This document shows, in pieces, positions 13,841 to 37,890 of a stretch of 64,000 nucleotides of DNA. Origin of the DNA: an uncultured Spirochaetota bacterium (GTDB lineage Bacteria; Spirochaetota; Spirochaetia; SZUA-6; DRHE01); the NCBI GenBank assembly GCA_963745745.1, contig CAVUYS010000017.1, positions 17,734 through 81,733 of the forward strand, given 5' to 3'. Position 1 is the first letter of the stretch; each line of letters begins with the position of its first letter. The notes beneath the pieces are model-generated. The model was not told the DNA's origin. It worked only from the letters and a program-made list of their open reading frames with translations, and searched no databases. A program made the position numbers and the translations under genes.

Positions 13841-13899
13841 AAAAATCCTCCCCCCCGCGCGCCCGGGGGGGAGGTAGGTTTCACCGCGCTCGCCGGCCG

Positions 13900-20508: not shown

Positions 20509-21262
<754 letters not shown>

Positions 21263-21280
21263 AGGAAGAGGGAGGAAGAG

Positions 21281-22085
21281 ATGAGGAAAGCATGGGTTCT
21301 GGCGGTGATCGCGCTGGTCGCGATCGCTGGACTCGTCGGGGCGCAGGCCAAGGACAGCTTGATCGACGAGATCGCCAAGCGCGGCGTTCTGAAAGTCGGG
21401 GTGGACGTGTTCGTGCCCTGGGTCTTCAAGGACAAGACCGGCAACCTGGTCGGCTTCGAGATCGACGTGGCCAAGCGGCTGGCCCAGGAGATGGGCGTGA
21501 AGCCTGGAGTTCGTGGAGACCAAGTGGTCGGGCATCATCCCCGCCCTGCTCACCAACAAGTTCGACGTGATCATCGGCGGCATGGGCTCCACCACCGAGC
21601 GCAGCCTCAAGGTCAACTTCACCATTCCGTACGACTACTCCGGCATGTCCATCTGCGCCAACAAGAAGATGGCCCCGGGCTGGACCAGGCTGGAGGACTT
21701 CAACAAACCCAACGTCATCCTGACCGTGCGCACCGGCGCCACCCCCGTGGCCGCGGCCAAGAAGTTCATGCCCAAGGCGCAGGTGCGCCAGTTCGACGAC
21801 GAGGCCCAGGCCTACCAGGAAGTGGTCAACGGGCGCGCCCACGCCTGCGTATCCTCGCAGCCGGGGCCCGAGAACTGGGTCAACGAACACCCGGACGTGC
21901 TGTACCTGCCCTTGAGCGGCAAGACCTTCACCAAGGAGCCCATCGCCTTCGCATTGCGCAAAGGCGACCCGGAAGCGATCATCTTCTTCAACAACTGGAT
22001 CACCCGCATGGAGTGGGAAGGCTGGCTGGAGGAGCGTCACCAGTACTGGTTCACCGGCAACGAGTGGAAAAAACTCACCCAGTAG
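21281..22085 (+). CDS. Amino-acid ABC substrate-binding protein, family 3; frameshift near 21505
   Basis: Signal peptide MRKAWVLAVIALVAIAGLVGA, ..LKVGVDVFVPWVFKDKTGNLVGFEIDVAKRLA.., continuing ..TKWSGIIPALLTNKFDVIIGGMGSTTERS.. in ORF 21513-22085. Confidence 0.7.
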
Positions 22086-22141: not shown

Positions 22142-23023
22142 GTGATCGGCCAAAGGGTCCGCTTCCGCTGGCTGGACGCGCTGATCATCGCGTTGCTGGC
22201 GGGCTTCGCCGCGTTCATCGGCTACCGGGTCACGGTGGGCCTGAACTACAAATGGCACTGGGCCTCGATTCCCCAGTACCTCGTGTTCCGGCACCCGGAC
22301 ACCGGCCGCTGGGCGGCCAACTACATCCTGCAGGGCCTGTTCACCACCCTGCGGCTTTCCCTCTGGGCCACCATCCTGGCCACCCTGATCGGGATCGTGC
22401 TGGGTGTGTTCCGCACCACCAGGAGCCTCTTTCTGCGGATGGTCGGGCGCACCTACGTGGAGATCATCCGCAACCTGCCGCCCCTGGTGCTGGTGTTCAT
22501 CTTCTATTTCTTCGTGGCCGACCAGCTCATGCCGCTGCTGGGCCTGGAGCCCCTGGTGCGCGCCCTCTCCCCGCGGACCCAGGCGGTGCTGGGGGCGCTG
22601 TTCGCCCCGGTGTCCCGCTTCACCCAGTTCATCTCCGCGGTGGTCACCATCGCGGTGTTCGAGGGCGCCTACATCACCGAGATCATCCGGGCGGGCATCG
22701 AGAGCGTGGAGCGCGGCCAGCGCGAGGCGGCTTACGCCCTGGGCCTGTCCTGGCTGGACCAGATGCGCCTGGTCATCCTGCCCCAGGCCATCAAGCGCAT
22801 CCTGCCGGCCCTGGCCGGGCAGTTCATCAGCACCATCAAGGACTCGGCCATCGTGGCCGCCATCTCCATCCAGGAGCTCACCTACCAGGGCATGCAGCTG
22901 GCCGTGAGCACCCACTTCACCTTCGAGGTCTGGCTCATGGTGGCCGTGCTGTACCTGGTGCTGACCCTGACCCTGTCCCTCGGAGTCAGCCGCCTGGAAA
23001 AGAAACTGCGCCAGAGCGACTAG
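22142..23023 (+). CDS. Polar amino-acid ABC transporter permease (second permease of the operon), GTG start
   Basis: ..IRNLPPLVLVFIFYFFVAD.. and ..AAYALGLSWLDQMRLVILPQAIKRILPAL..; 293 aa. Confidence 0.8.
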   Translation: MIGQRVRFRWLDALIIALLAGFAAFIGYRVTVGLNYKWHWASIPQYLVFRHPDTGRWAANYILQGLFTTLRLSLWATILATLIGIVLGVFRTTRSLFLRMVGRTYVEIIRNLPPLVLVFIFYFFVADQLMPLLGLEPLVRALSPRTQAVLGALFAPVSRFTQFISAVVTIAVFEGAYITEIIRAGIESVERGQREAAYALGLSWLDQMRLVILPQAIKRILPALAGQFISTIKDSAIVAAISIQELTYQGMQLAVSTHFTFEVWLMVAVLYLVLTLTLSLGVSRLEKKLRQSD

Positions 23024-23693
23024 AACGGACCCGGTTCAGGATCTCGGTGGCCGTGCGCCAGCCCAGCCCGAAGCGGCTGACCCCGCGGCGGGCCATCTCC
23101 AGCAGCGTCTCCAGCCCCCTCACCCCGCCGGCGGCCTTGATGCCGGCCCGCTCGCCCAGGCGCGCCTTGATCAGGGTCACGTTCTCCAGCGTCGCCCCGG
23201 TCTCGGCCCAGCCGGTGCCGGTCTTCACGAAGGCGGCGCCGCCCTCGACGGCCAGGTCGCAGCCGGCCAGGATCTGCTCGTCGCTGAGGTAGTGGCACTC
23301 CAGGATGACCTTCACCGGCAGGGGCCTCACGGCCTGGACCACGGCCCGGATGTCGTCCCGCACTTCGGCGGTCCGCCCGGAGAGCAGCTTGCCGATGTTG
23401 ATCACCATGTCGATCTCGGTGCAGCCCATTTCCACCAGCTCGCGGGCCTGGGCCGTCTTGAGGCGGGTGCTGTCCGAACCGGAGGGGAAGCTGACCACCC
23501 CGCCGGCGGCGGTCGTGGAGCCCTGGCCGAGAAGCTCGACCAGCAGAGGGGTCATGGACGGCAGGACGAAGGCCGCCACGCAGCCGAAGGCCAGGGCGGT
23601 TTCGGCCATCTTCCTCACGTCCTGCTCCGTGTCCTGGGCCTTGACCGCGCTCAGGTCGATCATCCGCGCGATCCGCTCCGCCGTGAGTATCAT
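22986..23693 (-). CDS. deoC: Deoxyribose-phosphate aldolase
   Basis: MILTAERIARMIDLSAVKAQDTEQDVRKMAETALAFGCVAAFVLP...KVILECHYL...FVKTGTGW typical DeoC blocks (catalytic K in FVKTGTG). Confidence 0.75.
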   Translation of the reverse strand: MILTAERIARMIDLSAVKAQDTEQDVRKMAETALAFGCVAAFVLPSMTPLLVELLGQGSTTAAGGVVSFPSGSDSTRLKTAQARELVEMGCTEIDMVINIGKLLSGRTAEVRDDIRAVVQAVRPLPVKVILECHYLSDEQILAGCDLAVEGGAAFVKTGTGWAETGATLENVTLIKARLGERAGIKAAGGVRGLETLLEMARRGVSRFGLGWRTATEILNRVRSSRSGAVSFPGG

Positions 23694-23697
23694 GGGT

Positions 23698-24864
23698 CTA
23701 CAGCCCGTGGGCGGTGGCCCGCTCGGCCACGATGGTCTCCAGCAGGGCCACGATGTTCTCCAGCGGCACGTCCTTCATCACTTCCTGCGACGGGGCGATC
23801 ACGTGCCCGCCCCCCTTGCCCAACAGGCGGATCACCTCCGCCGCCCCCTGGCGCACCTCCTGCGGCGTGCCGAAGGGCAGCAGCTTCTGCGTGTCGATCC
23901 CCCCCTGGAAGGTCAGATGCTTGCCGTACTTCTTCTTGATCAGCGGCAGGTCCATGCAGGGCTGCACCGGCTCGATGTAGTCCAGGCCGATGTCGATCAG
24001 CTCCGGCAGAAAGCTGGTGATGCACCCGCAGGAGTGCATCATCATGTACCAGCCCGCGTCCTTGTACACCTTGAACAGCTTCTTGTACTGCGGCTGCAGC
24101 AAGTCCCGGTACACCTGCGGCGGCACGAACGGCCCCACCTGCGTGCCCAGGTCGTCCCCCACGTGCCCGGCAGGGGCGAAGTCCATCTTCACGAAGCGCT
24201 TGGCCATCTCCACCTTGTAGTGGGTGATCTTGTCCAGCAGCTCGCTCACCATCTTCGGGGCCAGCAGCACGTTCTCGAACAGCCCCGGGATGCTCACCAT
24301 CCCGTAGGCCCGCTCGTACAGCCCGAAGTACCCCGAGGGAAACACGAAGTACTCCTGCCCGTAGGTCTGGATGTCCCGCGCGCACCACTCGAAGTTGCCT
24401 TTATGGTCCGGGTCCGGCGGGGTCCACTTGCGCACCCGCTGCTCCAGCGTGTCGGAGGTCACCGCGTCCCAGATCCGCTCCGGCATCCAGCGCTCGGCGA
24501 ACTTGCGCTCCTGCTTCTTCTCCAGCGGCGAGAAGCAGCAGAAAAACCCGTCCTCCCCGATCCTCACCCCCATGCCCCAGCTGTCGTAGACCACTTTCCC
24601 GGCCTCGTCCACCTTGCAGTAGCCCTCCGCCTCCAGCTCCTTCATCATCTTGAGGTCGTTGCGGAAGAACAGCGGGTAGTCGGCCTTGGCCAGGCTGATG
24701 ATCAGGTGGTTCTCCAGGTAGTCGTCCATGCTCTGGCTGGCCGGCAATTTGAGCGCCGCGTGCAGCTCCTTGTCCCGCGTGCGATCGGCCAGGGTGATCT
24801 GGCTGGGCAGATAGTCCATGTGCTCCCGCCGGATGGTGGCCAGCACCCTCTGTTTCTTGGTCAT
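23698..24864 (-). CDS. Uroporphyrinogen-decarboxylase (URO-D) family protein of the MtaA/MtbA/CmuA methylcobamide methyltransferase type
   Basis: 388 aa; MTKKQRVLATIRREHMDYLPSQI N-terminus and URO-D TIM-barrel blocks (..HSCGCITSFLPELIDIGLDYIEPVQP..). Good RBS ggagaggaga. Confidence 0.8.
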   Translation of the reverse strand: MTKKQRVLATIRREHMDYLPSQITLADRTRDKELHAALKLPASQSMDDYLENHLIISLAKADYPLFFRNDLKMMKELEAEGYCKVDEAGKVVYDSWGMGVRIGEDGFFCCFSPLEKKQERKFAERWMPERIWDAVTSDTLEQRVRKWTPPDPDHKGNFEWCARDIQTYGQEYFVFPSGYFGLYERAYGMVSIPGLFENVLLAPKMVSELLDKITHYKVEMAKRFVKMDFAPAGHVGDDLGTQVGPFVPPQVYRDLLQPQYKKLFKVYKDAGWYMMMHSCGCITSFLPELIDIGLDYIEPVQPCMDLPLIKKKYGKHLTFQGGIDTQKLLPFGTPQEVRQGAAEVIRLLGKGGGHVIAPSQEVMKDVPLENIVALLETIVAERATAHGL

Positions 24865-24879: not shown

Positions 24880-26406
24880 TCACCCCTGGCTGCCGCCGAA
24901 AGCCAGGTGCAGCACGTTTTCCTTGGTGATTCTCTCCCCGGCGAGCTCGCCGGAGATCCGGCCCTGAAACATGACGATCACCCGGTCGCACTCGGCCACC
25001 ACTTCCTCCAGCTCCGAGGACACCAGGATGATCGACTTTCCCTCCTCCTCTTTCAGGCGGCGGAGGATCCTGAAGATTTCCGCCTTGGCCCCCACGTCGA
25101 CGCCGCGCGTGGGCTCGTCCATGATCAGGATTCCGGGATCCGTGGACAGGCTGCGGCCGATGATCAGCTTCTGCTGGTTGCCGCCGCTCAGGTTCTTGAC
25201 GTTCTGGGTCAGGGCGCTCAGCTTGATCGCCAGCCTCTGCACGTACTCTCGCGCGATGGCCAGGATCTTGCGGACCTGGACGAAACTCAGGACGGTGATG
25301 CTCTTATCGTGAATGACCGCCAGGTTGTCCTTGACGTCCAGGTTCCCGAACAGGCCCTGCCGCCTGCGGTCCTCGGGGATGAAGGCGAAGCCGCGGCGGA
25401 TGGCGTCCCTGGGGCTGCCGTTGACCAGAGGCTTCCCGTCCCGCAGCAGCTCCCCCGCGTCCTGCCGGTACATTCCGAACAGGGTCTGCATCAGCTCCGT
25501 GCGCCCCGCTCCCTGCAGGCCGTAGAAGCCCAGCAGCTCGCCGTGGTGCAGGCGGAAGCTCACCTCCCGGAAGTGCTTCCCGCGCGCCAGGCCGCGCACC
25601 TCCAGGGCCACTTCGGGGCAGGCGCAGTCCCGCTGGTGCGCGGGCGCGCCGAACTCCTTGGAGAGCTCCCGGCCGGCGATCAGGCTGACGATTTCCCTCG
25701 GGGTGGTCTTGTCCGCCTCGAAGGTCCCCAGGTACTTCCCGTCGCGCAGGACCGAAATCCGGTCCGTGACCTCGAACACTTCCTCCAGGCGGTGGGAAAT
25801 GAAGATGATGGTCATGCCCCGGGCCTTGAACTTGCGCAGGTTTTCGAAAAGGATCCGCGTCTCGTTGACCGTGAGCGAGGAGGTAGGTTCATCGAGGATG
25901 AGCACTTCGGTGTTCAGGTTGAGCGCCTTGGCGATCTCCACGATCTGCCGCTGGGCGATGGGCAGGCTCTTGACCGGGGCGCGGGTGCTGATGCGCACCC
26001 CGAAGGAGTCCAGCAGCGCCCCGGCCTTGCGGTGCATTTGCGGCCAGTGGATGGAAGCGCCGCGGCGCAGCTCCCGGCCCAGGAAGACGTTCTCCACCAC
26101 GCTCAGGTTCTCGCAGAGCATCAGCTCCTGGTACACGGTGGAGATCCCCAGACTCAAGGCGGCGCTCGGGTCGGGCACCTCGACGGGTCGGCCTTTGAAC
26201 AGGATCCGCCCCTCGTCGGGCGGGTACCAGCCCGAGAGGATCTTCATCAGGGTCGACTTGCCGGCCCCGTTTTCCCCGGCCACGGTGTGGATCTCCCCCC
26301 GGCGGATGGCGAAGCTCACCCCGTCGAGGGCCTGGACGCCGGGGAACTTCTTGGAGATGCCCTGGAAGACCAGGACCTCCTCGGCGCTCACTTCCGGCGC
26401 GACCAT
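24880..26406 (-). CDS. Sugar ABC transporter ATP-binding protein with duplicated NBDs (RbsA/MglA/XylG-like)
   Basis: GENGAGKSTLMKILSG..., LSGGNQQKLIIGRSL, two Walker A/B sets; C-terminal half of ORF 24880-27363. Confidence 0.85.
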   Translation of the reverse strand: MVAPEVSAEEVLVFQGISKKFPGVQALDGVSFAIRRGEIHTVAGENGAGKSTLMKILSGWYPPDEGRILFKGRPVEVPDPSAALSLGISTVYQELMLCENLSVVENVFLGRELRRGASIHWPQMHRKAGALLDSFGVRISTRAPVKSLPIAQRQIVEIAKALNLNTEVLILDEPTSSLTVNETRILFENLRKFKARGMTIIFISHRLEEVFEVTDRISVLRDGKYLGTFEADKTTPREIVSLIAGRELSKEFGAPAHQRDCACPEVALEVRGLARGKHFREVSFRLHHGELLGFYGLQGAGRTELMQTLFGMYRQDAGELLRDGKPLVNGSPRDAIRRGFAFIPEDRRRQGLFGNLDVKDNLAVIHDKSITVLSFVQVRKILAIAREYVQRLAIKLSALTQNVKNLSGGNQQKLIIGRSLSTDPGILIMDEPTRGVDVGAKAEIFRILRRLKEEEGKSIILVSSELEEVVAECDRVIVMFQGRISGELAGERITKENVLHLAFGGSQG

Positions 26407-27363
26407 ATGTCCAGGGCCACCGCGCCGATCAGCACCGCGCCAATGATGACCATCTGCACGAAGGGCGACACGCCCAGCAGCACCAGCCCGTTGCGCAGCA
26501 CGCCGAGCAGCAGCACTCCGATCAGGGTGCCGACGATCGTCCCCTCCCCCCCGCTCAGGCTGGTCCCCCCCAGGATGGTGGCGGCGATCACGTCCAGCTC
26601 CAGGCCCTGGCCGGCCGTGGACTGCACATTGCCGAGGAAGCCCGAGTTGATGGCCCCGCCGAAAGCGGCCAGGAAGCCCAGGATGGCGAAGGCCACGATC
26701 TTCACCAGCCGGACGTTGATGCCCGACACCCGGGCCGCCTCGGCGTTGCCGCCCACGGCGCGCATGCGGTAGCCGATGATGTTCTTCTGGTAGACCACGA
26801 AGCCGAACACCAGGACGAGCAGAAAGGCGATGGACATGGTGGGGACGGTGTCGAAGAGCTTGCCGCGCCCGATGAAGATGAAGGCCTCCAGGGCGGGGTC
26901 CTTGATCAGGCGGGGGATCAGCGGCACGACCATGCCCCCGTTGATCAGCATGGCCACGCCCCGGGCCATGTTCAGCATGCCCAGGGTGACGATCAGCGCC
27001 GGCACCCGCAGGAGGGTCACCAGCACGCCGTTGACCACCCCCGCCGAAGCGCCGATGGCCAGAGCCGGCCAGGATGGAGGCCCAGATCGGGATCCCGCGG
27101 GTCATCAGCACGGACATGGCCACCACGGACATGCCGTACACGGAACCCACCGACAGGTCGATCTCGCCGGAGACGATCACCATGGTCATGCCCACCGCCA
27201 GGATCCCGAGGATGGAGACCTGCCGGACGATGTTCATCAAATTGTCGACGGTCAGGAACACCCGGGTCGACACGGAGAACACGAGGACCAGGATCACCAG
27301 CCCGGCGAAGATCCCCATCTCCTTGGCCTTGAAGAGCGCCGCCAGGGGGCTGCGGGTCTGCAC
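26388..27363 (-). CDS. Sugar ABC transporter permease (RbsC/BPD_transp_2-like); frameshift near 27040
   Basis: N-terminus MQTRSPLAALFKAKEMGIFAGLVILVLVFS... (ORF 24880-27363 start), continuing ..VVNGVLVTLLRVPALIVTLGMLNMARG... in ORF 26388-27038. Confidence 0.7.
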
Positions 27364-27468: not shown

Positions 27469-28500
27469 TCAGCCGACCGGCTCCCCGTCCTTGATCTTCT
27501 GCAGCCACTCGTCCACGTTCTGCCGGTTCACCTCCACGATGCCGGTGTCGATGACCGTCGGCGGGGTGCCCTGGGTCAGGAGCTCGTAGAGCTGCTTCAC
27601 GGCCTCGTAGCCCTGCTTGTAGGGGTTCTGGCCGTAGGCGGTGGTGGTCCAGCCGTTCTTGATCTGGATGAGCTTCTCCTCGTACAGGTCGTGGCCGCTG
27701 CTCCAGATCGGCTTCTTGGAGTCCGCGTTGCCGACCTTCTTGTTCTCCATCAGGCGCCCCCACAGGTAATCGGTGCCGCCGAAGCTGATGTGGCCGGTGA
27801 CGTCGGGATGGGCGATGAAGGAGTTCTCCAGCGCCGCGTAGGCCGACTGCTCGTCGCCCTCGGCGTTGACCGTGTCCACGATCTTGATGTCCGGGTACTT
27901 GTCCAGCACCGACATGACCCCGTCCTGGCGCTTGCGCGACCAGATCGCGCCGATGGCCACCGAGGAGACGATGACCTTGCCCTTGGGGCCCATCTTGCTG
28001 ATCACGGACTCCGCGGTGGCGGCGCCCGCCAGGAACAGGTCCTCGCCCACGAAGCCGAGGCGGCCGGATTCCGGAGCGTCCACGTTGTTGCAGGTCACGG
28101 GGATGCCCGCCTTGAGGGCCTTCTGGATGACCGGGGTCATGCCCGGGATGTCCAGCACGGCCACGGAGATCCCGTCCACCTTCTTGGTGATCAGGTCCTC
28201 GACCACCTTGATCAGCGGCTCGGTCTCCCAGCTGGTCGGGCCGGTCATGTAGGCCTTGACCCCCAGCTCCTTGGCCGCCGCATCGACCCCCTGCTTGATG
28301 AACTGGGCGAAGGGGACGGTCACGTTCATGTACACGACCGCGATCTCGAGGTCCTTGGGCTTCTTGTTGGGAAGCTTGAACTCGTAGCCGTTCAGGCTGA
28401 CGGTCTTGCCCGAGCCGCCGCCTGCCTTGCTGCAGCCGCCCAGGAAGCCCAGGGTGGCCACGAAGGACAGCGCGATTAACACCGCGAGAAGCTTTTTCAT
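27469..28500 (-). CDS. Sugar ABC substrate-binding lipoprotein (periplasmic binding protein, RbsB-like fold)
   Basis: Lipobox LGFLGGCS after MKKLLAVLIALSFVAT; 343 aa; strong RBS aaggaggagaag. Confidence 0.8.
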   Translation of the reverse strand: MKKLLAVLIALSFVATLGFLGGCSKAGGGSGKTVSLNGYEFKLPNKKPKDLEIAVVYMNVTVPFAQFIKQGVDAAAKELGVKAYMTGPTSWETEPLIKVVEDLITKKVDGISVAVLDIPGMTPVIQKALKAGIPVTCNNVDAPESGRLGFVGEDLFLAGAATAESVISKMGPKGKVIVSSVAIGAIWSRKRQDGVMSVLDKYPDIKIVDTVNAEGDEQSAYAALENSFIAHPDVTGHISFGGTDYLWGRLMENKKVGNADSKKPIWSSGHDLYEEKLIQIKNGWTTTAYGQNPYKQGYEAVKQLYELLTQGTPPTVIDTGIVEVNRQNVDEWLQKIKDGEPVG

Positions 28501-28531: not shown

Positions 28532-28548
28532 AAGCAAGAACCAGGCCA
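28532..28548 (-). promoter_or_regulatory. Candidate sigma54 promoter (-24/-12: TGGCCTggttcTTGCT on the minus strand) about 35 nt upstream of the sugar-ABC SBP start
   Basis: Read directly; GG-N10-GC spacing matches the sigma54 consensus. An NtrC-family activator is encoded divergently. Confidence 0.4.
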
Positions 28549-28630
28549 GCCGGTCCAGCTCGCCTCGAACTAAGGGAAAAATTCTCTAACTTCATTCCGC
28601 AGAGGGAAATGCCGGAGCATCGAGCAGCAG

Positions 28631-28685
28631 TTGACAGCCGGTGGAAGTCCCCATATGATGGCGGTCGTGTGTAGAAAATACACAC
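28631..28685 (+). promoter_or_regulatory. Sigma70-type promoter TTGACA-17-TATGAT, then palindrome gtgtgta-gaaaa-tacacac at the predicted +1 (operator) upstream of the NtrC-family regulator
   Basis: Read directly. Confidence 0.5.
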
Positions 28686-28713: not shown

Positions 28714-30069
28714 ATGGCCCCCTGCATCCTGATCGTGGACGATAACCGCCGCCTGTGCGACAGCCTGGCGCAGAATTTCCAGGACCTGGGCCTGCCCACG
28801 GCCTGCGCCGGGAACCGGGCCGAGGCCCTCCGGCAGTTCGGCTCCGGCCGGATCGCGGCCGTGCTTCTGGACATCATGGTGGGCGAGGAGAACGGGATCG
28901 ACATTCTCGTCGACCTCAAGAAGGCCGACCCGGGCGTGCCCGTGATCATGATCACCGGCTATGCCACGGTGGACACCGCGGTGCAGGCCTTGAAACTGGG
29001 GGCCGCGGACTACGTCAAGAAGCCGCTGGACTTCGAGGTGCTGCACAAGATCGTCACCAACGCCATCCGGCTCTCCCGCCTGGCCGAGGAAAACCGGGGT
29101 CTGAAGAACCGCCTGCGGGAGCTGAAGCCCAGGTTCACCACCCGCAGTCCGCGCCTGCTGCAGCTGCTGGAGACGGTGCGCAAGCTGGCCGCCACCGAAC
29201 TGCCGGTGCTGATCACCGGGGAGAACGGCACGGGCAAGGAGCTCATCGCCGACGCCCTGCACGAGGGCTCCTCCCGCGCTTCGCGGAAGCTGCTCAAGGT
29301 GAACTGCGCCTCCTTCCCGGAAAGCCTGCTGGACAACGAGCTGTTCGGCCACGAGCGCGGCTCGTACACCGGGGCCGACTCCGCCTACCAGGGCCTGTTC
29401 GAGCAGGCCGGCGCCGGCACCCTGTTCCTCGACGAGATCGGGGACATGCCGCTGGCCATCCAGGCCAAGATCCTGCGCGCCCTGCAGAACAAGGAGATCC
29501 GCCGCATCGGCGGCACCCAGACCGTGGCCATCGACGTGCGCTTCATCACCGCCACCAACCGCAACGTCGAGAGCCTCATCGCCGCCAACCGTTTCCGCCA
29601 GGACCTGTACTATCGCCTGAGCGCCGCGGTCGTGTCGCTGCCTCCCCTGCGCGAGCACCTGGAGGATCTACCCGAGCTCTCCCGCGCCTTCGTGGAGGAG
29701 TACTGCCTTTCCAACTCCCTCCCCCTCAAGGAGCTGGAGCCGGCGGTGATGGGGGCCTTCCTGCGCCACCCCTGGCCCGGGAACGTGCGCGAGCTGAAAA
29801 ACAGCCTCAACTACGCCTGCGCCATCTGCTCCGGCCCCCGGATTTCCCTGGCCGACCTGCCGCCCGCCTTCCAGGGCGGGGCGGGCCCCGCCGGGAACGG
29901 GCTGAACGTGCGCGAGCAGGCCGAGAGGGACCTGATCATCAAGACCCTGCAGCTGGCCGGCTTCAACAAGCGCGCGGCCGCCCTGCGCCTGGCGATGAGC
30001 CGGAAAACCCTGTACAACAAGATCGCCCGCTATGGAATCGACGCCGGCAGCAACAATCGCGGCCTCTGA
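28714..30069 (+). CDS. Sigma54-dependent response regulator (NtrC family: REC + AAA+ sigma54-activator + Fis-type HTH)
   Basis: ILIVDDNRRL...D (REC), GENGTGKELIADALH, GAFTGA-region equivalent ..ELFGHERGSYTGA.., ..RELKNSLNYAC.., C-terminal ..NKRAAALRLAMSRKTLYNKI.. Confidence 0.9.
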   Translation: MAPCILIVDDNRRLCDSLAQNFQDLGLPTACAGNRAEALRQFGSGRIAAVLLDIMVGEENGIDILVDLKKADPGVPVIMITGYATVDTAVQALKLGAADYVKKPLDFEVLHKIVTNAIRLSRLAEENRGLKNRLRELKPRFTTRSPRLLQLLETVRKLAATELPVLITGENGTGKELIADALHEGSSRASRKLLKVNCASFPESLLDNELFGHERGSYTGADSAYQGLFEQAGAGTLFLDEIGDMPLAIQAKILRALQNKEIRRIGGTQTVAIDVRFITATNRNVESLIAANRFRQDLYYRLSAAVVSLPPLREHLEDLPELSRAFVEEYCLSNSLPLKELEPAVMGAFLRHPWPGNVRELKNSLNYACAICSGPRISLADLPPAFQGGAGPAGNGLNVREQAERDLIIKTLQLAGFNKRAAALRLAMSRKTLYNKIARYGIDAGSNNRGL

Positions 30070-31906
30070 GATCCTCCGCCTCCAGGAGGTTTTCCGGGAC
30101 TACGGGAACATCGAGGCGGTCCGGGGAGTGAGCCTGGCCATCAGGGCGGGGGAAGTCCACGCCCTGGTCGGCCAGCACGGGGCCGGCAAGACGACGCTGG
30201 CCCTGCTGATCAGCGGAAAGCTCCCCCCGAAGTCCGGAAGCATCACCTTCTGTGGCAGGCGCTACGCCTCGCTGAACCTGGGACTCTCCAACCGCCTGGG
30301 CATCAAGATGGTCTACCAGCAGGTGTACCTGAACGATTACTTCACGGTGGCGGAGAACCTGTTCTTTCACGACCCCAGCGTCAACCGCTTCGCCTGGAGC
30401 TCGCCCCGGCGCCTGAATCGGGCCGCGGCGGAACTTTTCGGCCGGCACGGCTTCGACATCGACCCCGGCGCCAAGCTGCGGGCCCTGAGCCTTTCGGACC
30501 GCACCGTGGTGGATATCCTGAAGCAGCTCTACGCCGGGCCGGTCCTGCTGGTGCTCGACGAGGCCCTGGAGAAGCTGTCGCCCGCCGCGCTGGAGCGGAT
30601 CGTCCCCCTGCTGCTGGAGCGCGCCCGGCAGGGCCTGGCCCTCCTGTTCATCACCCACCGCATCGACGACGTGTACCGCTACGCCCACAAGGTCAGCATT
30701 CTGCGCGACGGGCAGCTGATCTTCAGCGGCAGCACCGCCGACATCGACCAGATCAACCTGGTGCGCCTGGCCTACACGCAGTTCTCGGCCCAGGCCAGCC
30801 CCACCGCCGCGAACGCCGAGTTCACCCGCTTCCTGCGCTACAACGAGGCGATCCTGGCCCACCTGCCCCTCAGCCTCCTGCTCACCGACCTGGAGGGCCG
30901 GGTGAAGCTGGCCAACGAGCACTTCCAGAACGCCCTCGGCCGCCCGAGCTCCGGCTACCTGGACCGGCCCGTGCTGGAGGTCCTGGACGGCCTGAGCGGC
31001 GCGGACTCAGGCGAGCTGGCCCAGGCGCTGCAGAGCCAGGCCGACCGGGAGTTCTACAACGTGCGCCTGGCGATGGGCGGGCGGGACACCCTGCACAACA
31101 TCAAGACCCTTTCGGTGTTCGACGGGGAGATGCCCATTGGCACCATGCTGGTCCTGGAAGACATCACGGAGTACGACAAGCTGCAGAAACAGATCCTGCT
31201 GACCGAGAAGCTGGCTTCCGTCGGCCTGCTGGCCGCCGGGGTGGCCCACGAGATCAACAACCCGCTGGAGATCATCTACAACTACCTGGCCACCCTGCGC
31301 AACCGGGCCGCCAGCCAGGGCACCCGCGACACGGTGAACAAGCTGCAGGAGGAGATTTCCTACATTTCCACGATCGTCAGCAACCTGGTGAATCTGGCCG
31401 ATCCCGGCCGCCTGGACCAGGGGGAGCAGGAGCTGAACGAGGTGATCGGCAAAATCCTGGACCTGCTGCGGCAGAGCGCCCGCTCCAGGAGCATCAACAT
31501 CCGTTTCTCCTCCGGCAAGCCCGCCATCCGGGCGTGGGTGAACGCCAACGAGCTGAAGCAGGTCGTTCTCAACCTGATCAAGAACAGCTTCGAGGCCATG
31601 CCCGAGGGGGGCACCGTGGCCGTGGCCACCGACGAGGTGCTGCTGGAGGGGGTTCCTACCGCCCTCATCACGGTCCAGGACGACGGCCCGGGCATCCGGG
31701 CGGACAACCTCATCGACATCTTCCTTCCTTTTTACACAACGAAGAAGGCCCGGGGCAGCAACAGCGGCCTCGGGCTATCGGTCACCTACGCGATCCTGGA
31801 ACGCTACGGCGGCAAGATCACGGCCGAGAACCTGCCCCGGGGCTGCCGCTTCACGATCAGCCTGCCGCAGCGGCCGGTTTCCCCCCCGGTTGCAGGCAAG
31901 CAGTAA
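30032..31906 (+). CDS. Cytoplasmic sensor histidine kinase with N-terminal ABC-transporter nucleotide-binding-domain-like sensor (NBD - PAS - HisKA - HATPase_c)
   Basis: Residues 10-250: Walker A GQHGAGKTT, Q-loop, degenerate signature LSLSDR, Walker B LLVLDEA, H-loop ITHRIDD. Then a PAS-like segment, then H-box GVAHEINNPL and the N/G1/G2 boxes (..LIKNSFEAM.., ..DDGPGI.., ..GSNSGLGLS..). No TM helices. Confidence 0.8.
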   Translation: MESTPAATIAASEILRLQEVFRDYGNIEAVRGVSLAIRAGEVHALVGQHGAGKTTLALLISGKLPPKSGSITFCGRRYASLNLGLSNRLGIKMVYQQVYLNDYFTVAENLFFHDPSVNRFAWSSPRRLNRAAAELFGRHGFDIDPGAKLRALSLSDRTVVDILKQLYAGPVLLVLDEALEKLSPAALERIVPLLLERARQGLALLFITHRIDDVYRYAHKVSILRDGQLIFSGSTADIDQINLVRLAYTQFSAQASPTAANAEFTRFLRYNEAILAHLPLSLLLTDLEGRVKLANEHFQNALGRPSSGYLDRPVLEVLDGLSGADSGELAQALQSQADREFYNVRLAMGGRDTLHNIKTLSVFDGEMPIGTMLVLEDITEYDKLQKQILLTEKLASVGLLAAGVAHEINNPLEIIYNYLATLRNRAASQGTRDTVNKLQEEISYISTIVSNLVNLADPGRLDQGEQELNEVIGKILDLLRQSARSRSINIRFSSGKPAIRAWVNANELKQVVLNLIKNSFEAMPEGGTVAVATDEVLLEGVPTALITVQDDGPGIRADNLIDIFLPFYTTKKARGSNSGLGLSVTYAILERYGGKITAENLPRGCRFTISLPQRPVSPPVAGKQ

Positions 31907-31939
31907 CCCGGCGCCGGCCTTCCGGCGTTTGCCACGCCG

Positions 31940-31968
31940 GCCGCGGGCGGGTATAATCCGGCCCATCA
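31940..31968 (+). promoter_or_regulatory. Strong sigma70 promoter TTGCCA-17-TATAAT; the ATG of the downstream ORF lies about 10 nt after the -10 (leaderless or near-leaderless mRNA)
   Basis: Read directly. Preceded by a short hairpin cgccgg-cctt-ccggcg after the kinase stop. Confidence 0.5.
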
Positions 31969-31978
31969 TGGCCCGCAG

Positions 31979-33098
31979 CATCGAAGTCCTCCGCGTCTCC
32001 GAACGAAGCCCGCAGGAAAAAGAGTTCATCGCCTTCCCCAAGCGCCTGTACCGGGGCTGCCCGCAGTGGGTGCCCTGGTTCGACCTGGACATGCGGATGA
32101 TGCTTCGCCGCAGGCATCCCTACTTCCGTCAGGCCTCCGGGGATTTCTTCCTGGTCCGCGAAAACGGCCGCACCCTGGGGCGGGCCTGCGTGGTGAAAAA
32201 TCCCAGCTACATCGCCCAGCACAAGACCGCCTGCGCCCAGTTCTACTTCTTCGACGTGGAGGAAGACCCGCCGGCGGCCGAGGCCCTGCTGCGGCGCCTG
32301 CAGGAATGGGCCCGGGGGCAGGGGCTGGGGCTCCTGCGGGGCCCCATGCTGCTGGGCGGGGCCTCGGGCAGCGGCATCCTGGTCCAGGGCTTCGAGCACC
32401 GGGCGGCCATGACCATGATGCCCTACAACTACCCCTACTACCCGCGCCTGCTGGAGGAGCTGGGGTTCCGCAAGCACGTGGACCTGTACTCCATGGACCT
32501 GCCGCCGGACAAATTCCGCCTGCCGGAGCGTGTGCGGGCGGCGGCCGGGAAGGTGCTGGCCCGGGGACGCTTCCGCGTGCTGGAGTTCCGCAGCAAGCGC
32601 GACTTGAGGAAGGTGGCCGACCGCATCGCCGGGCTGTACAACGCGACCCTGGCCGACCACCTGGAGGACTACCCCCTGAGCGACGCGGAGCTGGAGCAGT
32701 CCAAGAAGGATCTGCTGGTCATTGCCGACCCCCGCCTGGTCAAGATCCTGGCCTATGACGGGCAGATCGTCGGGTACCTGTTCGGCTTCCCGGACCTTTC
32801 CCGCGCGCTGCAGAAGAACGCCGGCCGCCTGGGCCCCCTCCAGCTGCTGCGCCTGCTCTCGGCGATCCGTTCCAACGACGAGCTGATCCTGAACGGCATG
32901 GGCATCCTGCCCCAATACCAGCGCCTGGGAGGCAATGCCCTGCTGTACCACGAGCTGGAAAAGTCCGCCGCCGGCGGGAGCTTCCGCCGGGCCGAGCTGG
33001 TGCAGGTCTCGGAGCGCACCGAGCTGATGCTGCGCGACATCCAGACCCTGGGTGGCCGCATCTGCAAGGTGCACCGCATGTACGAGAAGGAGTGCTGA
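31979..33098 (+). CDS. Hypothetical protein, about 373 aa, possibly GNAT-fold acyltransferase-like
   Basis: Uninterrupted ORF from MARSIEVLRV with coding-like GC3. No confident family assignment from sequence alone. Confidence 0.45.
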
Positions 33099-33179: not shown

Positions 33180-33948
33180 ATGCCGGTCCTATCTTCGGTC
33201 TCCAAAGCCCTGACCCTCCTGGACGCCTTCACCGCCGAGAAGCCGGAGCTCACCCTCACCGAGCTGGCCCGCCAGGCCGGGGCCCACAAGTCCTCCGCCT
33301 TCCGCCTGTTGAGCCACCCTGGAAGCCCACGGCTTCGTGGAGAAGAGCCCCTCCGGAAGGGGCTACCGCCTGGGCTGGAAGCCCCTGGAGCTTTCCGGCC
33401 GCCTGCTGGGCCGCTACGAGCTGCGCGAGCTGGCCGCCCCCCACATGGAGGAGCTGGCCCAGAAGAGCGGGGAGATCGTGCACCTGTCCATCCTGGACGG
33501 GGCGGAAATCGTGTACCTGGACAAGCGCGGGCGCAGCCAGCCGCTGACCGTCTCCACGACCGTCGGCGGGCGCAGCCCGGCCCACGCCTCGGCCATGGGC
33601 AAGGTGCTGCTGGCCGGCCTGCCGCCCGCGGAAGTGCTGCGCCTGCTGGGCGGCCGGCCCCTGAGGCGCTTCACCCCCACCACCATCACGGACCGGCGCC
33701 GCCTGGGCCGCGAGCTGGAAGCCATCCGGCGCCAGGGCTTCGCCCTGGACAACGAGGAAGCCTTCCCCGGCATCCGCTGCGTGGCCGCCCCCCTGCGCGG
33801 GCGCGCAGGGCGGGTGCTGGCCGCCCTGAGCCTGACCGTGCCCGCCCAGCGCATGGGCGCGCGCCGGCAGGCCGAGCTGAAAGACTGGGTCACGGACACC
33901 GCCGCCCGGATTTCCGACCGGATCCGGGCGGGCGGAATCGACGCATAG
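33180..33948 (+). CDS. IclR-family transcriptional regulator; frameshift near 33318
   Basis: HTH part MPVLSSVSKALTLLDAFTAEKPELTLTELARQAGAHKSSAFRLL, then (other frame) ..LEAHGFVEKSPSGRGYRLGWKPLEL.. and the IclR effector domain (..GIRCVAAPL..). Confidence 0.75.
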
Positions 33949-33969: not shown

Positions 33970-34608
33970 TGTCGGTACAGGAACTGCAGCAGGCAGTGGA
34001 GGCCGGGGACAAGGACCGCGCCACGGCGCTGGCCCGGGACCTGCTGGGCAAGGGCACGGACGGCCCTGAAGATCATCGAGTCCCTCACCCAGCTGATGAG
34101 CGTGGTCGGCGAGAAGTTCTCCCGCCTGGAGATCTTCCTGCCGGAGATGATGATGGCCGGCGCGGCCATGTCCGCGGTGGTGGAGCTGCTGGGCCCGCAG
34201 CTGAAAGCCAGCAAACAGGGCCAGCCCAAGGGCAGGATCGTGCTGGGCACCGTGATGGGCGACCTGCACGAGATCGGCAAGAACATCGTCAAGCTGATGC
34301 TGGAGACCCAGTTCTTCGAGGTGAAGGACCTGGGGGTCAACGTGGACGCGGTCGTCTTCATCAAGGAGGCCGAGGCCATGGGCGCCAACCTGATCGGCGC
34401 CTCCTCCCTGATGACCACCACCATGCCCCACCAGAAGGAGATCGTGAACCTCCTGAAAGACAAGGGGCTGCGCGCCAAGTACAAGGTCGTGGTCGGCGGG
34501 GCGCCCGTGAACCAGAAATGGGCCGAGGAGATCGGCGCGGACCTGTACAGCCCGGACGCGGGAACCGCCCCGCGGATGATCGGCGAGCTGCTGAAGGAGA
34601 AAGCATAA
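33970..34608 (+). CDS. Corrinoid (B12)-binding methyltransferase partner protein (B12-binding_2 cap + B12-binding Rossmann domain); frameshift near 34060
   Basis: MSVQELQQAVEAGDKDRATALARDLL (cap), then ..RIVLGTVMGDLHEIGKNIV.. (DxHxxG B12 motif), ..GASSLMTTTM.., ..KVVVGGAP.. Confidence 0.75.
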   Translation, partial: CRYRNCSRQWRPGTRTAPRRWPGTCWARARTALKIIESLTQLMSVVGEKFSRLEIFLPEMMMAGAAMSAVVELLGPQLKASKQGQPKGRIVLGTVMGDLHEIGKNIVKLMLETQFFEVKDLGVNVDAVVFIKEAEAMGANLIGASSLMTTTMPHQKEIVNLLKDKGLRAKYKVVVGGAPVNQKWAEEIGADLYSPDAGTAPRMIGELLKEKA

Positions 34609-35990
34609 TGTCCAGTCCATATCGCTTGTGGGAGATCCAGGAACGCTCCAACACCGGTCCGTTCTGCGAGGAGAACGACTTCCTGCCCAAGCTCTTCACC
34701 CCGAAGCTGAAGGAAGTCATCAAGAAGTACCAGATCAAGTACGACCCGAAAAACCCCGTCCCCTCGGACGACGCGCTGGCCGACCGGGTGTGGCAGGCCG
34801 GCTGGGAGCTGTACCGCGAGGTGGGGCTGTACAACACCGACACCCACCGCATCATCAAGGTCAGCGACCAGGAAATCAAGGAAGCCCTGTACATGCACCC
34901 GGGCCAGTACTGGGTGGGGGCGGGCAAGGACGCCGTGCTGTGGAAGCACCGCCAGGTGGAGGACCGCAAGACCCCCTTCGCCCTGTTCAGCCCGGACTGC
35001 ACCTGCTCCGAGGAGCTGCACTACTCCATGTGCCTGGCCTACCTGAAAGAGCCGCTGCTGGACGGGTTCTGCGCCCCGATCCTGGAGGAATCCATGGGGC
35101 AGAAGATCGCCTCCGCCTCCCCCTTCGAGATCAACGGCTGCACGCAGCACATCTACAACCTGCGCCTGGCGGCCAAGCAGGTCGGGCGGCCGGGGACCTT
35201 CTTCGTGGCCGTGGGCACCGCCGAGCACGACAGCGGGCAGATCGCCGTTTCCAACAACGAGTGGGGCGTGCGCACGACGGACGCCAGGATCATCGGCACC
35301 CTGACCGAGTTCAAGACCGCCAACACCCTGCTCAACCGCGTGGTGCACTGCGCCCAGTACGGCTGCTACGCCGGCAACCTCACCGGGGCCATCTACGGCG
35401 GCTGGTGCGGAGGCTCGGAAGGGGTGGCCGTGGCCACCGTGGCCTACTCCCTGAACGGCCTGCTGGCCTACGGGGCGATCTTCAACCAGCACTTCCCCTT
35501 CCACCTGAACTGGGGCTCCAACACCACCCGCGAGCTGCTGTGGCCCATCGCCGTGGCCGGCCAGGCCCTGTCGCGCAACTCCAAGCTGCTGTACACCTCC
35601 AACGGCTTCTCCAACGCCGGGCCCATGACCGAGATGGTGTTCTACGAGACCGCCTGCCACGCCCTGGTGAGCGTGGTGAGCGGCTGGGACCTGTGGGAGA
35701 TGGCCTCGGCGCGCAACAAGCACCGCAACCGGGCCACCCCGCTGGAGGCCCGCCTGGGCATGGAGGTCGGGCACGCCGTGGCCCGCCAGGGCATGACCCG
35801 GGCCCAGGCCAACGAGATCGCCAACCGCATCCTGGCCAAGTACGAGCAGCGGGCCGCGGACGCGCCGATCGGCAGCCGAGTACCAGGACTGCTACCACGT
35901 GGCCACGGCCCTGCCCACCCAGGAGCACCTGGACATGTACCGCCGGGTCAAGGACGAGCTGGCCGGCATGGGGATCCAGTTCCCCTACTG
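34609..35990 (+). CDS. Monomethylamine-methyltransferase (MtmB)-like protein, non-pyrrolysine homolog; frameshift near 35877
   Basis: ..GLYNTDTHRIIKVSDQEI.. (cf. MtmB GIYCTDTHRIVKYTEDEI) and ..HLNWGSNTTRELLWPIAVAG.. (cf. WGSTNTRETLMIAG). The region aligning to the Pyl site of MtmB reads GRPGTFFVAVGTAEHDSGQ with no in-frame TAG. The C-terminal 40 aa are in a shifted frame and end ..GMGIQFPY*. Confidence 0.7.
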
Positions 35991-36002
35991 ACGGGAAGCG
36001 CC

Positions 36003-37890
36003 ATGAGCCGGCTGTTGAGCGGAAACCAGGCCATCGCCTACGCCGCCCTGGAGGAGGGCGTGGCCCTGGTCACCGGTTACCCCGGCACGCCTTCCACGGA
36101 GGCCCTGACCGAGATCGAGCACCTGGCCCGCCGGGGCGAGCCCGCCCCGTACGTGGAGTGGAGCGTGAACGAGAAGGTGGCCTTCGAGCTGGGCGCCGGG
36201 GCCGCCTGGGCCGGCCAGCGCGCGCTGGTGACCATGAAGATGTCGGGGGCCAACGTGGCCCTCGACGCCTTGATCGGGGTGGCCCACTCCGGGGTGAACG
36301 GCGGCCTGGTGGTGTACGTGGCCGACGACCCGGGGGTCGAGGCGGGGATGCCCGAGCAGGACTCCCGCCTGCTGGCCCAGCTCTGCGGGCTGCCTCTGCT
36401 GGATCCCGCGGACCCGGCGTCGGCCTACCGCCTCACCCGCTACGCCTTCGGCCTCTCGGAGCGCACCGGGCTGCCCGTGCTCCTGCGCTCCGTGACCTCG
36501 GTGGCCCACGCCCGCTCTCCCGTGGACTCCACCCGGCGCTGGCGGCCGCTGGACCGTCCGGCCTCCTTCAGCCGCGACATCAGCCGCTACACCAAGGCCG
36601 GTTCGGCCATCTGCCTCGCGCAGCACCGGGAAAACCTGGCCCGCCTGGCGATGGCGGAAGAGGCCTTCCGCTCCGACGGGATCAACGTCTTGTCGCCGGG
36701 CGGCCCCTCGGACGGCGACCGGATCGGGGTGATCGGCGCGGGGGCGGTGATCGCCGGCCTGGCCGAGGCCCTGGAGGAGCGGGAGGCCGCCGGGCAGACG
36801 GTGCCGGCCGGCCTGTTCCTGGAGGGGGTCCTGCCGCTGGAGGAGGGCAAGGTGCGCGAGCTGCTGGCCTCCTGCGGCAGCCTGACCGTGTTCGAGGAGC
36901 TGGAGCCCGTGGTGGAGCGCGAGGTGCGCGGCCTGGCCACGCGCCTGGGCTGGCAGGGGCGCATCCTGGGCAAGATGGACGGCGTGCTCCCGCGCGTGGG
37001 GCGCTACACGCGGCGCGAGATCCTGGCCGGGCTGGCGGCGCTGGATGGCAAGGCCACCACCGCCACCACCGCGGCAACGCCGGAAGCCCCGCCGGTGAAG
37101 CACCCCATCACCTTCTGCGCCGGCTGCCCGCACCGCGGCACCTACCTGGCCCTGAACCGGGCCCTGAAGGCCCTGAAGCTGCCCAAGGAAGAGGTCGTGG
37201 TCACCGGGGACATCGGCTGCACGATCCTGGGCATGAACGCCCCCTTCAGCTCCTGCTGGACGGAGCTGGCCATGGGCTCCAGCCTGGGCCTGGCCCAGGG
37301 CTTCCAGCGGGCCGGCCTGAAGGGGCCGCTGGTGGCCACCATCGGGGACTCCACCTTCTTCCACGCCGGCCTGCCGGCGCTGGTGAACGCGGTGCAGCAC
37401 GACACCCCCCTGGTGCTGGTCATCCTGGACAACGGCTGGACCAGCATGACCGGCTTCCAGGCCAACCCCGGCACGGCCCCCGCGCTGCAGGCCGCCGGCA
37501 GCCGCCGGGTCTCGATCGAGGCCGTGGTGCGGGCCATGGGCGTGGACTTCCTGGAGCGGATGGATCCCTTCGACCAGCCGGCGGCCATCGAGGTGATGAA
37601 GCGGGCCCTCGCGGCCGAAGGGGTGCGGGTGGTGCTGGCCGAGCGGGAATGCGCCCTCACCGTGGCGCGCCGCGAGCCGGAAAGGGAGCTGTACCGCATC
37701 GATGCGGGAAAATGCACCTTCTGCCGGGCCTGCCTGCGCGAGACCGGCTGCCCGGCCCTGAACATGACCCGCAGCGGGCCAGGGCGATGCGGGCAAGGAG
37801 CACATGGCCATCGACGAGGAGCTTTGCACCGGCTGCGGCCTGTGCGCGACCTGCTGCAAGTTCGACGCCATCCACGAGGTGGGGGCATGA
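36003..37890 (+). CDS. iorA: Indolepyruvate:ferredoxin oxidoreductase alpha subunit (TPP- and 2x[4Fe-4S]-containing); frameshift near 37780
   Basis: MSRLLSGNQAIAYAALEEGVALVTGYPGTPSTE N-terminus typical of IorA; TPP region GDIGCTILG..GDSTFFH; CTFCRACLRETGCPA and (other frame) ..IDEELCTGCGLCATCCKFDAIHEVGA* ferredoxin motifs. Confidence 0.8.

Follow-up and report, generated by a model that had tools for sequence, protein, structure and literature searches.

The gene at 30032-31906 (plus strand) of the DNA analysed here encodes a soluble histidine kinase whose input half is the nucleotide-binding domain (NBD) of an ATP-binding cassette (ABC) importer, placed in front of a PAS domain. The stretch, called the window below, comprises 64,000 nucleotides of contig CAVUYS010000017.1 (assembly GCA_963745745.1, positions 17,734 to 81,733) from an uncultured Spirochaetota bacterium. 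We observe that this fusion recurs in a small protein family, that its members lie beside importers of the sugar-type CUT2 family, and that their NBD is most closely related to the first NBD (NBD1) of the ATPases of these same importers. Control of the adjacent importer operon by the kinase and its response regulator, through a sigma-54 promoter, is well supported by the conservation of the promoter and of the layout around it. We propose, with a probability of about 0.5 for the mechanism as a whole, that the NBD-kinase engages its cognate transporter and relays the state of that transporter to the sigma-54-dependent regulator, and would thus represent an uncharacterised form of transporter-coupled two-component sensing.

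Architecture of the kinase and its regulator

The kinase is a single uninterrupted open reading frame (ORF) of 624 residues, and domain searches recover the continuous NBD-PAS-HisKA-HATPase_c protein that a sequence-only reading of the window had proposed. The matches to ABC_tran, PAS_4, HisKA and HATPase_c all exceed the Pfam gathering scores, the first of them covering residues 31-179 (E 8e-19, 69 bits against a cut-off of 25). The NBD extends over residues 12-248 (30065-30775) and was assigned to the CUT2 NBD1 type from Pfam, NCBIfam, phmmer, AlphaFold2, Foldseek and a neighbour-joining tree. In NCBIfam, residues 14-249 align to positions 1-235 of YtfR, AraG, LsrA, AlsA and RbsA, which correspond to the N-terminal NBD of these ATPases, and residues 268-615 align to AtoS, while a phmmer search of PDB sequences with residues 1-273 returned ABC NBDs only (best E 2e-31). 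The motifs expected of an ABC NBD lie where the sequence-only reading had placed them, namely Walker A GQHGAGKTT (residues 47-55, 30170-30196), the Q-loop Gln96 with the downstream FTVAENLF helix (30317-30364), a degenerate signature LSLSDR (residues 152-157, 30485-30502), Walker B LLVLDEA with the catalytic Glu177 (residues 172-178, 30545-30565), in which the usual DEPT is replaced by DEAL, and the H-loop ITHR with His209 (residues 207-210, 30650-30661).

Behind the NBD, a flexible linker predicted with low confidence (predicted local distance difference test score, pLDDT, below 50; residues 249-264, 30776-30823) leads to a helix proximal to the PAS domain. The latter covers residues 275-380 (30854-31171; Pfam PAS_4 1e-7), with a PAS fold in the AlphaFold2 model and a Foldseek match to YF1. 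It is followed by the HisKA/DHp domain (residues 398-457, 31223-31402), with the phospho-acceptor His406 in its H-box (31241-31267), and by HATPase_c (residues 505-614, 31544-31873; Pfam 1.2e-21) with its N, G1, F and G2 boxes. The corresponding sequences VAHEINNPL, NLIKNSFE, DDGPGI, FLPFY and GLGLS are invariant across the family. No transmembrane helix was found in the kinase, in agreement with the sequence-only reading, the highest 19-residue Kyte-Doolittle mean being 1.38.

AlphaFold2, run on an alignment of 119 sequences, predicts the NBD with confidence (pLDDT ~90, residues 11-240), then the disordered linker, the helix entering the PAS fold, two long DHp helices and the catalytic and ATP-binding domain. 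The closest PDB structures found with Foldseek are LptB (TM-score 0.86), MJ1267, MalK and MetN for the N-terminal part, and the PAS-kinase YF1 and the cytoplasmic domain of ZraS (35% identical) for the remainder; no single PDB chain among the Foldseek matches spans both parts. Profile annotation and predicted structure thus agree on an ABC NBD fold for the N-terminal part.

The response regulator is encoded at 28714-30069 (plus strand) and shows the receiver domain, sigma-54 AAA+ domain and HTH_8 domain of the NtrC/AtoC type (Pfam Response_reg, Sigma54_activat 5e-65, AAA_lid_14 and HTH_8). The start of the kinase gene overlaps its 3' end by 38 nt, in agreement with the overlap noticed earlier. 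The loop that contacts sigma-54 reads GSYTGA at residue 216, and among the family regulators GAYTGA (n=22), GAFTGA (n=5), GSYTGA (n=5) and GSFTGA (n=2) are found. The AAA+ domain, this loop, HTH_8 and the target promoter all indicate that the regulator is a bacterial enhancer-binding protein. By its domain matches, the kinase is a class I (HisKA) sensor kinase from the neighbourhood of AtoS, ZraS and NtrB to which a CUT2 NBD1 has been added. Both proteins score below the NCBIfam equivalog cut-offs of the named systems (AtoS 206 versus 646, ZraS 154 versus 479, AtoC 416 versus 714, NtrC 353 versus 559), and the window regulator is also under the cut-off for ZraR.

A small family of genuine fusions

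Three genes of the window are split by single indels within 14 kb: the importer permease (at 27054-27069), an IclR regulator (33180-33948, at ~33310) and another ABC ATPase (20509-21400, at ~20870-20900). This suggests an indel-prone assembly, perhaps from long reads, and not true pseudogenes, so that it was important to verify that the kinase ORF did not itself arise by an indel joining the genes of an ABC ATPase and of a kinase. Among 5.8 billion protein clusters, a search retrieved at least 120 with the full architecture, 595-642 residues in length, with 95-100% query coverage and 43-95% identity, and ABC_tran, HisKA and HATPase_c are present in all of them. The same architecture occurs in 89 loci of independent assemblies, and a metagenome contig that shares 95% DNA identity with the window has the same kinase reading frame. 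Because the fusion is kept in so many independent clusters, we consider the chance of an artefactual join practically negligible.

When the linker and PAS region alone (residues 236-390) was compared with 1.84 billion representatives at 50% identity, 79 matches at E <=1e-10 were obtained, and among the matches listed, ~100 are proteins of 600-640 residues in which the match lies at ~230-390. The fusion family is therefore small yet, as judged from these searches, genuine, with roughly 100 clusters at 50% identity. Where the sources name organisms, these are metagenome-assembled genomes (MAGs) of Spirochaetia/Spirochaetota, KSB3 (Moduliflexus, Vecturithrix) and Desulfobacterota, the nearest named homologues of the window kinase being from Spirochaetia MAGs. 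The alignment used for collecting loci mattered: a scan of genome contigs with the full-length alignment picked up the generic kinase pattern, with 6 true fusions among 80 loci, and a scan of metagenome contigs with an alignment of the NBD C-terminus, linker and PAS only was far more productive. Automated annotation labels family members either as 'ATP-binding cassette domain-containing protein' or as 'histidine kinase'.

The sequence-only reading was aware of no characterised example of this architecture, and full-text searches for a kinase that uses an ABC NBD as its input domain found none described. A 2021 review on how kinases sense their signals contains no mention of such an input either, and the papers in which both domain names occur give domain counts only.

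Association with CUT2 importers

In the window, the importer operon lies on the minus strand, divergent from the regulator and kinase genes. Its first gene encodes a periplasmic substrate-binding protein (SBP; 27469-28500, Peripla_BP_4, Pfam 8e-49) with weak NCBIfam matches to RhaS, AlsB and rhizopine SBPs. It is followed by a CUT2 permease (26388-27363, BPD_transp_2 in Pfam), present in two frames because of the 1-nt indel mentioned above, probably an assembly error, and by a tandem-NBD CUT2 ATPase (24880-26406, two ABC_tran matches in Pfam), which remains under the NCBIfam cut-offs for XylG, AraG, YtfR, AlsA and RbsA. In this ATPase, NBD1 has a consensus Walker A and the signature LPIAQRQ, and the second NBD (NBD2) has GLQGAGRTE in the Walker A position and the signature LSGGNQQK.

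The same layout, as annotated with Pfam, is shared by five homologues of distant lineages: a regulator and a kinase, often overlapping, and a divergent importer operon with Peripla_BP_4, BPD_transp_2 and a tandem ABC_tran ATPase. The catabolic genes accompanying these operons vary (FGGY kinase, GFO/IDH/MocA, aldehyde dehydrogenase, SDR, amidohydrolase), and so do the genes downstream of the kinase, which are not conserved among homologous loci. We extended the comparison by scanning profile models of each component over 91 loci from genome and metagenome collections, which contain 89 NBD-kinase genes. The regulator lies directly upstream in 68 of the 71 kinase genes with at least 1.3 kb of upstream sequence, the other three being artefacts that stem from ORFs delimited stop to stop. 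In all 44 loci with at least 6.5 kb of upstream sequence, a CUT2 ATPase and permease lie within 7.5 kb upstream or 3 kb downstream of the kinase, and the importer is divergent in 41 of them and on the same strand in 2. The sugar-type operon opposite the two-component genes, first noticed in the window, is thus the rule in the family, and the question raised with it, whether the fusion always neighbours a CUT2 system, receives a positive answer at every locus with enough flanking sequence.

Several genomes or contigs carry paralogous modules, each with its own transporter. Loci L084 and L085 lie on one 7.3-Mb contig, L050 contains two regulator-kinase pairs in back-to-back arrangement, with a separate CUT2 operon opposite each pair, and L094 comprises two modules on one contig. 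The catabolic genes differ between paralogous modules of one genome or contig. As each of these modules has its own transporter, the arrangement points to one sensor per transporter.

In locus L143 (5259-6146; duplicate L144), the partner ATPase is not tandem, being a single NBD of ~250 residues with the canonical signature LSGGERQ.

Probable sigma-54 control of the importer operon

The region between the regulator and SBP genes contains a -24/-12 element of the sigma-54 type, TGGCCTGGTTCTTGC, on the minus strand (28534-28548, read from 28548 to 28534) and aimed at the ABC operon. The minus strand ahead of the SBP gene reads cTGGCCtggttcTTGCt, and 34 nt separate the element from the ATG, its distance to the regulator start being 166 nt. 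With two mismatches to TGGCAC-N5-TTGC it is unconvincing taken alone, and no match to this consensus with at most one mismatch was found in the window. It is recognised as a promoter because the same position is conserved in homologous loci. We searched 69 regulator-upstream regions for elements with at most two mismatches, fixed GG and GC, and a direction pointing away from the regulator gene. Such an element toward the importer is present in 57 of the 69 regions, versus 4 of 69 on the opposite (control) strand. The distance between the family elements and the regulator start is 98-294 nt, with a median of about 150, 13 of the elements being perfect and 30 having one mismatch, and the regions in which none was found mostly belong to loci whose importer is downstream on the same strand. 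The sigma-54-like promoter claimed for the divergent operon is consequently a feature of the family.

Nearer to the regulator gene, the palindrome GTGTGTA-N5-TACACAC (28667-28685) is a candidate enhancer, or upstream activating sequence (UAS), for the regulator. Palindromes are found at a similar position in other loci, as TGTGTA/TACACA variants in L081, L003 and L001, as TGTTCA-N5-TGAACA in L083 and L084, and as TGAGTAA-N3-TTACTCA in L086. Midway between UAS and -24/-12 element, a site resembling those of integration host factor (IHF), TGTCAAgcTTTATTT (WATCAA-N4-TTR), is present in L001 and L083-L086, across phyla; in the window this site is weak (TGTCAA-N4 near 28624-28636). The intergenic layout, as read from these sites, is the classical arrangement of enhancer, bend and -24/-12 promoter. 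The conserved promoter together with this layout makes sigma-54 control of the adjacent importer operon by the two-component system well supported.

Nature and origin of the nucleotide-binding domain

Among the 119 homologues, residues G47, H49, G50, G52, K53, Q96, D176 and E177 of the NBD are invariant, and Y24 of the A-loop, T208 and H209 of the H-loop region, F104, V106, A107, E108 and N109 are at least 90% conserved. When a divergent clade is included (79 NBDs), the conservation of Tyr24 drops to 0.81 and that of E177 to 0.92, and the other ATP-site residues stay conserved. This pattern suggests that nucleotide binding, and probably hydrolysis too, is under selection. The divergent clade (~29% identity) has the Walker A sequence GEHRAGKS and is represented by L050 (4947-11791) and L005 (2607-4139).

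The kinase NBDs form one clade, sister to CUT2 NBD1, in a neighbour-joining tree that includes both halves of the neighbouring ATPases, and their identity is 28% to NBD1 versus 20% to NBD2. In number of domains they differ from a tandem CUT2 ATPase, the kinase having a single NBD with a best NCBIfam score of 140 bits versus the YtfR cut-off of 850. The signature is degenerate in every member, with the family consensus L-(S/N)-L-(S/P)-(D/E)-(R/Q), or LNLSDR in single letters; the canonical Ser is usually missing, and the window kinase has LSLSDR in place of LSGGQ. The degeneracy pointed out by the sequence-only reading is thus real but not peculiar to the kinase, as NBD1 of the neighbouring CUT2 ATPases is non-canonical as well (LPIAQRQ, LSLAQIQ, LSVSQQQ). 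NBD2 of these ATPases has the signature LSGGNQQK but a degenerate Walker A (GxxGxGR) and no H-loop His. CUT2 ATPases have a single consensus ATP site, and comparison of the motifs of the two halves indicates that the kinase NBD is its catalytic half, split from the half that supplies the signature. By the same comparison its degenerate signature is partly inherited from NBD1, the kinase signature being somewhat more degenerate than that of NBD1.

When 79 kinase NBDs were aligned with 55 NBD1s and compared column by column, both were seen to share the ATP-site residues, and His49 proved diagnostic of the kinase NBD, NBD1 having an invariant Asn at this position. The helix after the Q-loop (TVAENLF), similar to that of NBD1, is retained in the kinase NBD; in ABC importers, the Q-loop and the helix that follows it form the region that contacts the membrane subunit. 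The kinase NBD also has a conserved, family-specific C-terminal helix (AYTQ; D239, L243, Y248, Q250), located directly before the linker.

Co-diversification with the transporter

We compared distance matrices over the 34 loci that contain exactly one of every component, with partial Mantel tests. NBD distances correlate with those of the ATPase (r 0.72; the two are homologous, which qualifies this value), the permease (0.55) and the SBP (0.54), and kinase-core distances correlate with the same partners at 0.61, 0.46 and 0.42, respectively. Given the kinase core, the NBD keeps partial correlations of 0.48 with the ATPase, 0.34 with the permease and 0.37 with the SBP, 0 of 3000 permutations being higher (p about 3e-4), and given the NBD, the kinase core keeps 0.09, 0.05 and -0.01. 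Judged by these distances, the transporter and the input half of the kinase diversify together, and the output half goes with the regulator. We considered gene conversion with NBD1 of the adjacent ATPase as a source of the correlated divergence and rejected it, since the identity of the kinase NBD is 28.4% to its own neighbour versus 27.7% to other loci, with uniform ranks.

Proposed mechanism and alternative explanations

In the mechanism that we propose, a soluble, dimeric, NtrB/AtoS-like kinase would take its input from the NBD1-type ABC domain and the PAS domain. The two NBDs of the dimer would engage the cognate transporter, most simply through the coupling helices of the permease dimer, in a contact mimicking that of NBD1 of the transporter's own ATPase. 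Docking of the liganded SBP on the permease would change the ATP-dependent state and the spacing of the NBDs, and this movement would travel through the C-terminal NBD helix and the linker to the PAS domain and the DHp helices, shifting the kinase/phosphatase balance. The phosphorylated regulator would then activate the sigma-54 promoter of the CUT2 importer and catabolic operon, resulting in positive feedback. What we infer in this scheme is the physical contact, the identity of the subunit contacted, the direction of the regulatory effect and the nature of the ligand. We favour engagement of the transporter because the ATP-site residues appear to be selected in a domain that comes from the same transporter family, because a kinase devoid of transmembrane and periplasmic parts has no other route to the outside, and because there is one kinase per transporter, with co-diversification of the two. 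A more specific form, in which some CUT2 permease dimers carry the kinase NBD pair instead of the transport ATPase, so that docking of the liganded SBP becomes kinase output through ATP-dependent NBD movement, is possible but doubtful.

Several observations weigh against transporter engagement. A separate complete transporter ATPase is present in 44 of the 44 informative loci and would compete for the permease sites, and docking in place of an ATPase subunit, one of the options of the sequence-only reading, is not supported at the gene level. Residues conserved in NBD1 are lost in the kinase (Pro178 of DEPT, Gln158 at signature position 7, Glu97 and the LGRE motif), so that the docking mode of the kinase NBD may differ from that of NBD1. 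As the signature is degenerate and mostly lacks its key Ser, a homodimer of kinase NBDs is unable to build ATP sandwiches of the canonical kind; the catalytic Glu and His are kept all the same, and this would be unusual for a site without hydrolysis. PAS distances follow the transporter just as NBD distances do (partial r about 0.30-0.32; 0.32 for PAS and SBP given the core), so substrate specificity could lie in the PAS domain, to judge from these distances. The partial Mantel tests are themselves liberal under shared phylogeny, and faster-evolving domains, with their larger dynamic range, carry more signal. Finally, sigma-54 promoters have little basal activity, and the putative co-receptor would therefore be scarce before induction.

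Part of this evidence fits an autonomous cytoplasmic sensor in which the PAS domain would bind the imported substrate or a catabolite and the NBD would serve as an ATP/ADP switch, either as energy gate or as dimeriser, without contact to the transporter. The kinase is indeed soluble, its ATP-binding residues are conserved, the divergence of its PAS domain follows the transporter as strongly as that of the NBD, and cytoplasmic PAS kinases of the NtrB kind are common. We nevertheless regard this explanation as unlikely, as it accounts neither for an NBD1-type domain found solely beside CUT2 importers nor for the tracking of ATPase and permease by the NBD beyond the kinase core, nor for several paralogues per genome, and as the degenerate signature disfavours a homodimer of the ATP-sandwich type. 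The kinase NBD might instead pair with an NBD of the transporter ATPase, borrowing the signature LSGGNQQK of NBD2 or LSGGERQ, and follow the ATPase cycle, in which case it would sense flux in the true sense. The kinase has a full catalytic half-site but lacks a canonical signature in cis, the ATPase is the component with which its NBD co-diversifies most strongly, and the single-NBD partner of L143/L144 could heterodimerise easily. However, NBD2 is covalently bound to its own NBD1, which would out-compete a partner in trans, and since the kinase NBD and the ATPase are homologous, their correlated distances may reflect shared substitution behaviour; such pairing seems to us distinctly unlikely. 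That the kinase itself energises the importer, replacing the ATPase and signalling as a side output, would agree with its conserved catalytic residues, but the complete ATPase kept at every informative locus, the missing canonical signature and the loss of the Pro of DEPT and of other NBD1-conserved residues make this highly improbable.

Comparison with known systems

Functionally, the nearest systems are the flux-sensing BceRS-BceAB modules of Firmicutes and the Pst-PhoU-PhoR relay. In the former, a kinase without a sensing domain of its own reads the activity or conformation of the cognate transporter and, through its regulator, induces the transporter operon (PMC4513084; complex structure PMC10314905). 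Kinase and transporter genes are adjacent in both cases. BceS, however, spans the membrane with two helices and meets the FtsX-type permease BceB there, the Bce transporter is a resistance pump with the single-NBD ATPase BceA, and the Bce regulator is of the OmpR type and sigma-70 dependent, whereas the NBD-kinase is soluble, has its own NBD and is associated with an SBP-dependent CUT2 importer and a sigma-54-dependent regulator. At the window locus, the kinase lacks the transmembrane helices of a Bce-type system, the permease is BPD_transp_2, unlike the FtsX-type permeases with their large extracellular domain, and the regulator is NtrC-type. In the PstSCAB-PhoU-PhoR/PhoB system, the state of an importer is relayed on the cytoplasmic side to a PAS-containing kinase and PstB is part of the relay (PMC9239213, PMC4423584, PMC13577022). 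There, the link is non-covalent, with PhoU as adaptor between PstB and the PAS domain of a membrane-anchored PhoR, whereas in the soluble NBD-kinase the NBD is covalently placed ahead of the PAS domain. None of the Pfam-annotated neighbours of five loci is a PhoU-like gene.

The closest sequence relative of residues 14-249 is NBD1 of the CUT2 ATPases (RbsA, XylG, AraG, YtfR, AlsA, LsrA), which has the same fold, a consensus Walker A, Q-loop, Walker B Asp-Glu and H-loop, and a similarly non-canonical signature. The NBD-kinase differs from these ATPases by having no second NBD and by its family-specific C-terminal helix, which leads into the kinase. The remainder resembles NtrB/NtrC, AtoS/AtoC and ZraS/ZraR, which also combine a PAS-HisKA-HATPase_c kinase with a REC-AAA+-HTH_8 activator and a promoter layout of UAS, IHF-like site and -24/-12 element. 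Their inputs differ, NtrB taking its signal from PII and AtoS and ZraS theirs from membrane or periplasmic domains, and none bears an NBD.

In ChvE-VirA, XylFII-LytS and LuxP-LuxQ, SBPs of the CUT2 type report their occupancy by sugar or autoinducer to a two-component system, the target of which is often a CUT2 transporter, and the SBP contacts the periplasmic domain of a membrane kinase. The NBD-kinase has no membrane or periplasmic part, and an SBP signal would therefore have to go through the permease. In MalK-MalT, an importer NBD subunit passes the idle or active state to an activator, MalK having C-terminal extensions below the NBD dimer; this occurs by non-covalent sequestration of MalT by the regulatory domain of MalK and involves no phosphorelay.

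How kinases read the state of ABC transporters is understood only in part, the Bce contact being intramembrane and the mechanism of Pst/PhoU/PhoR being debated. With a transporter motor domain fused to a kinase, the covalent structure itself fixes the point of coupling, and, from the fusion and its constant neighbours, the cell probably reads the transporter directly in order to switch on its own uptake operon. With about 100 clusters, every one of which has an importer of its own, the family also supplies natural replicates. Should the NBD dock on the permease, an ABC importer could serve as ligand receptor for a phosphorelay, and the kinase would constitute a compact, soluble and engineerable biosensor module in which transporter and SBP are swapped and the kinase is kept. 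A permease acting as receptor would further make the fusion a covalent 'Rosetta stone' of transporter-kinase coupling and a structural model for a reading of the Pst/PhoU/PhoR kind. If the NBD is instead an autonomous ATP-dependent switch, it would still represent a new class of kinase input domain.

Other genes of the window

Downstream of the importer ATPase, on the same minus strand, lie a URO-D/MtaA-like gene (23698-24864) and a DeoC/LacD-like aldolase gene (22986-23693), both identified with Pfam and probably co-transcribed with the importer. On the plus strand, a B12-binding corrinoid-protein gene (34096-34608) is followed by an MtmB-family methyltransferase gene (34620-36050; Pfam MtmB 7e-80). 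By their domain content, the corrinoid-protein, MtmB and URO-D/MtaA-like genes look like a methyl-transfer pathway of the methylamine or quaternary-amine type, and, as such genes lie beside the importer, the imported substrate may be other than a plain sugar.

Directly behind the kinase, a 402-residue ORF with a weak match to GNAT acetyltransferases (31890-33098, plus strand) shares 17 nt with the end of the kinase gene, with which it may be co-transcribed. Further away, on the minus strand, the stop-to-stop frame 9984-13880 contains two more ABC NBD matches, possibly those of a tandem or ABC-F type ATPase.

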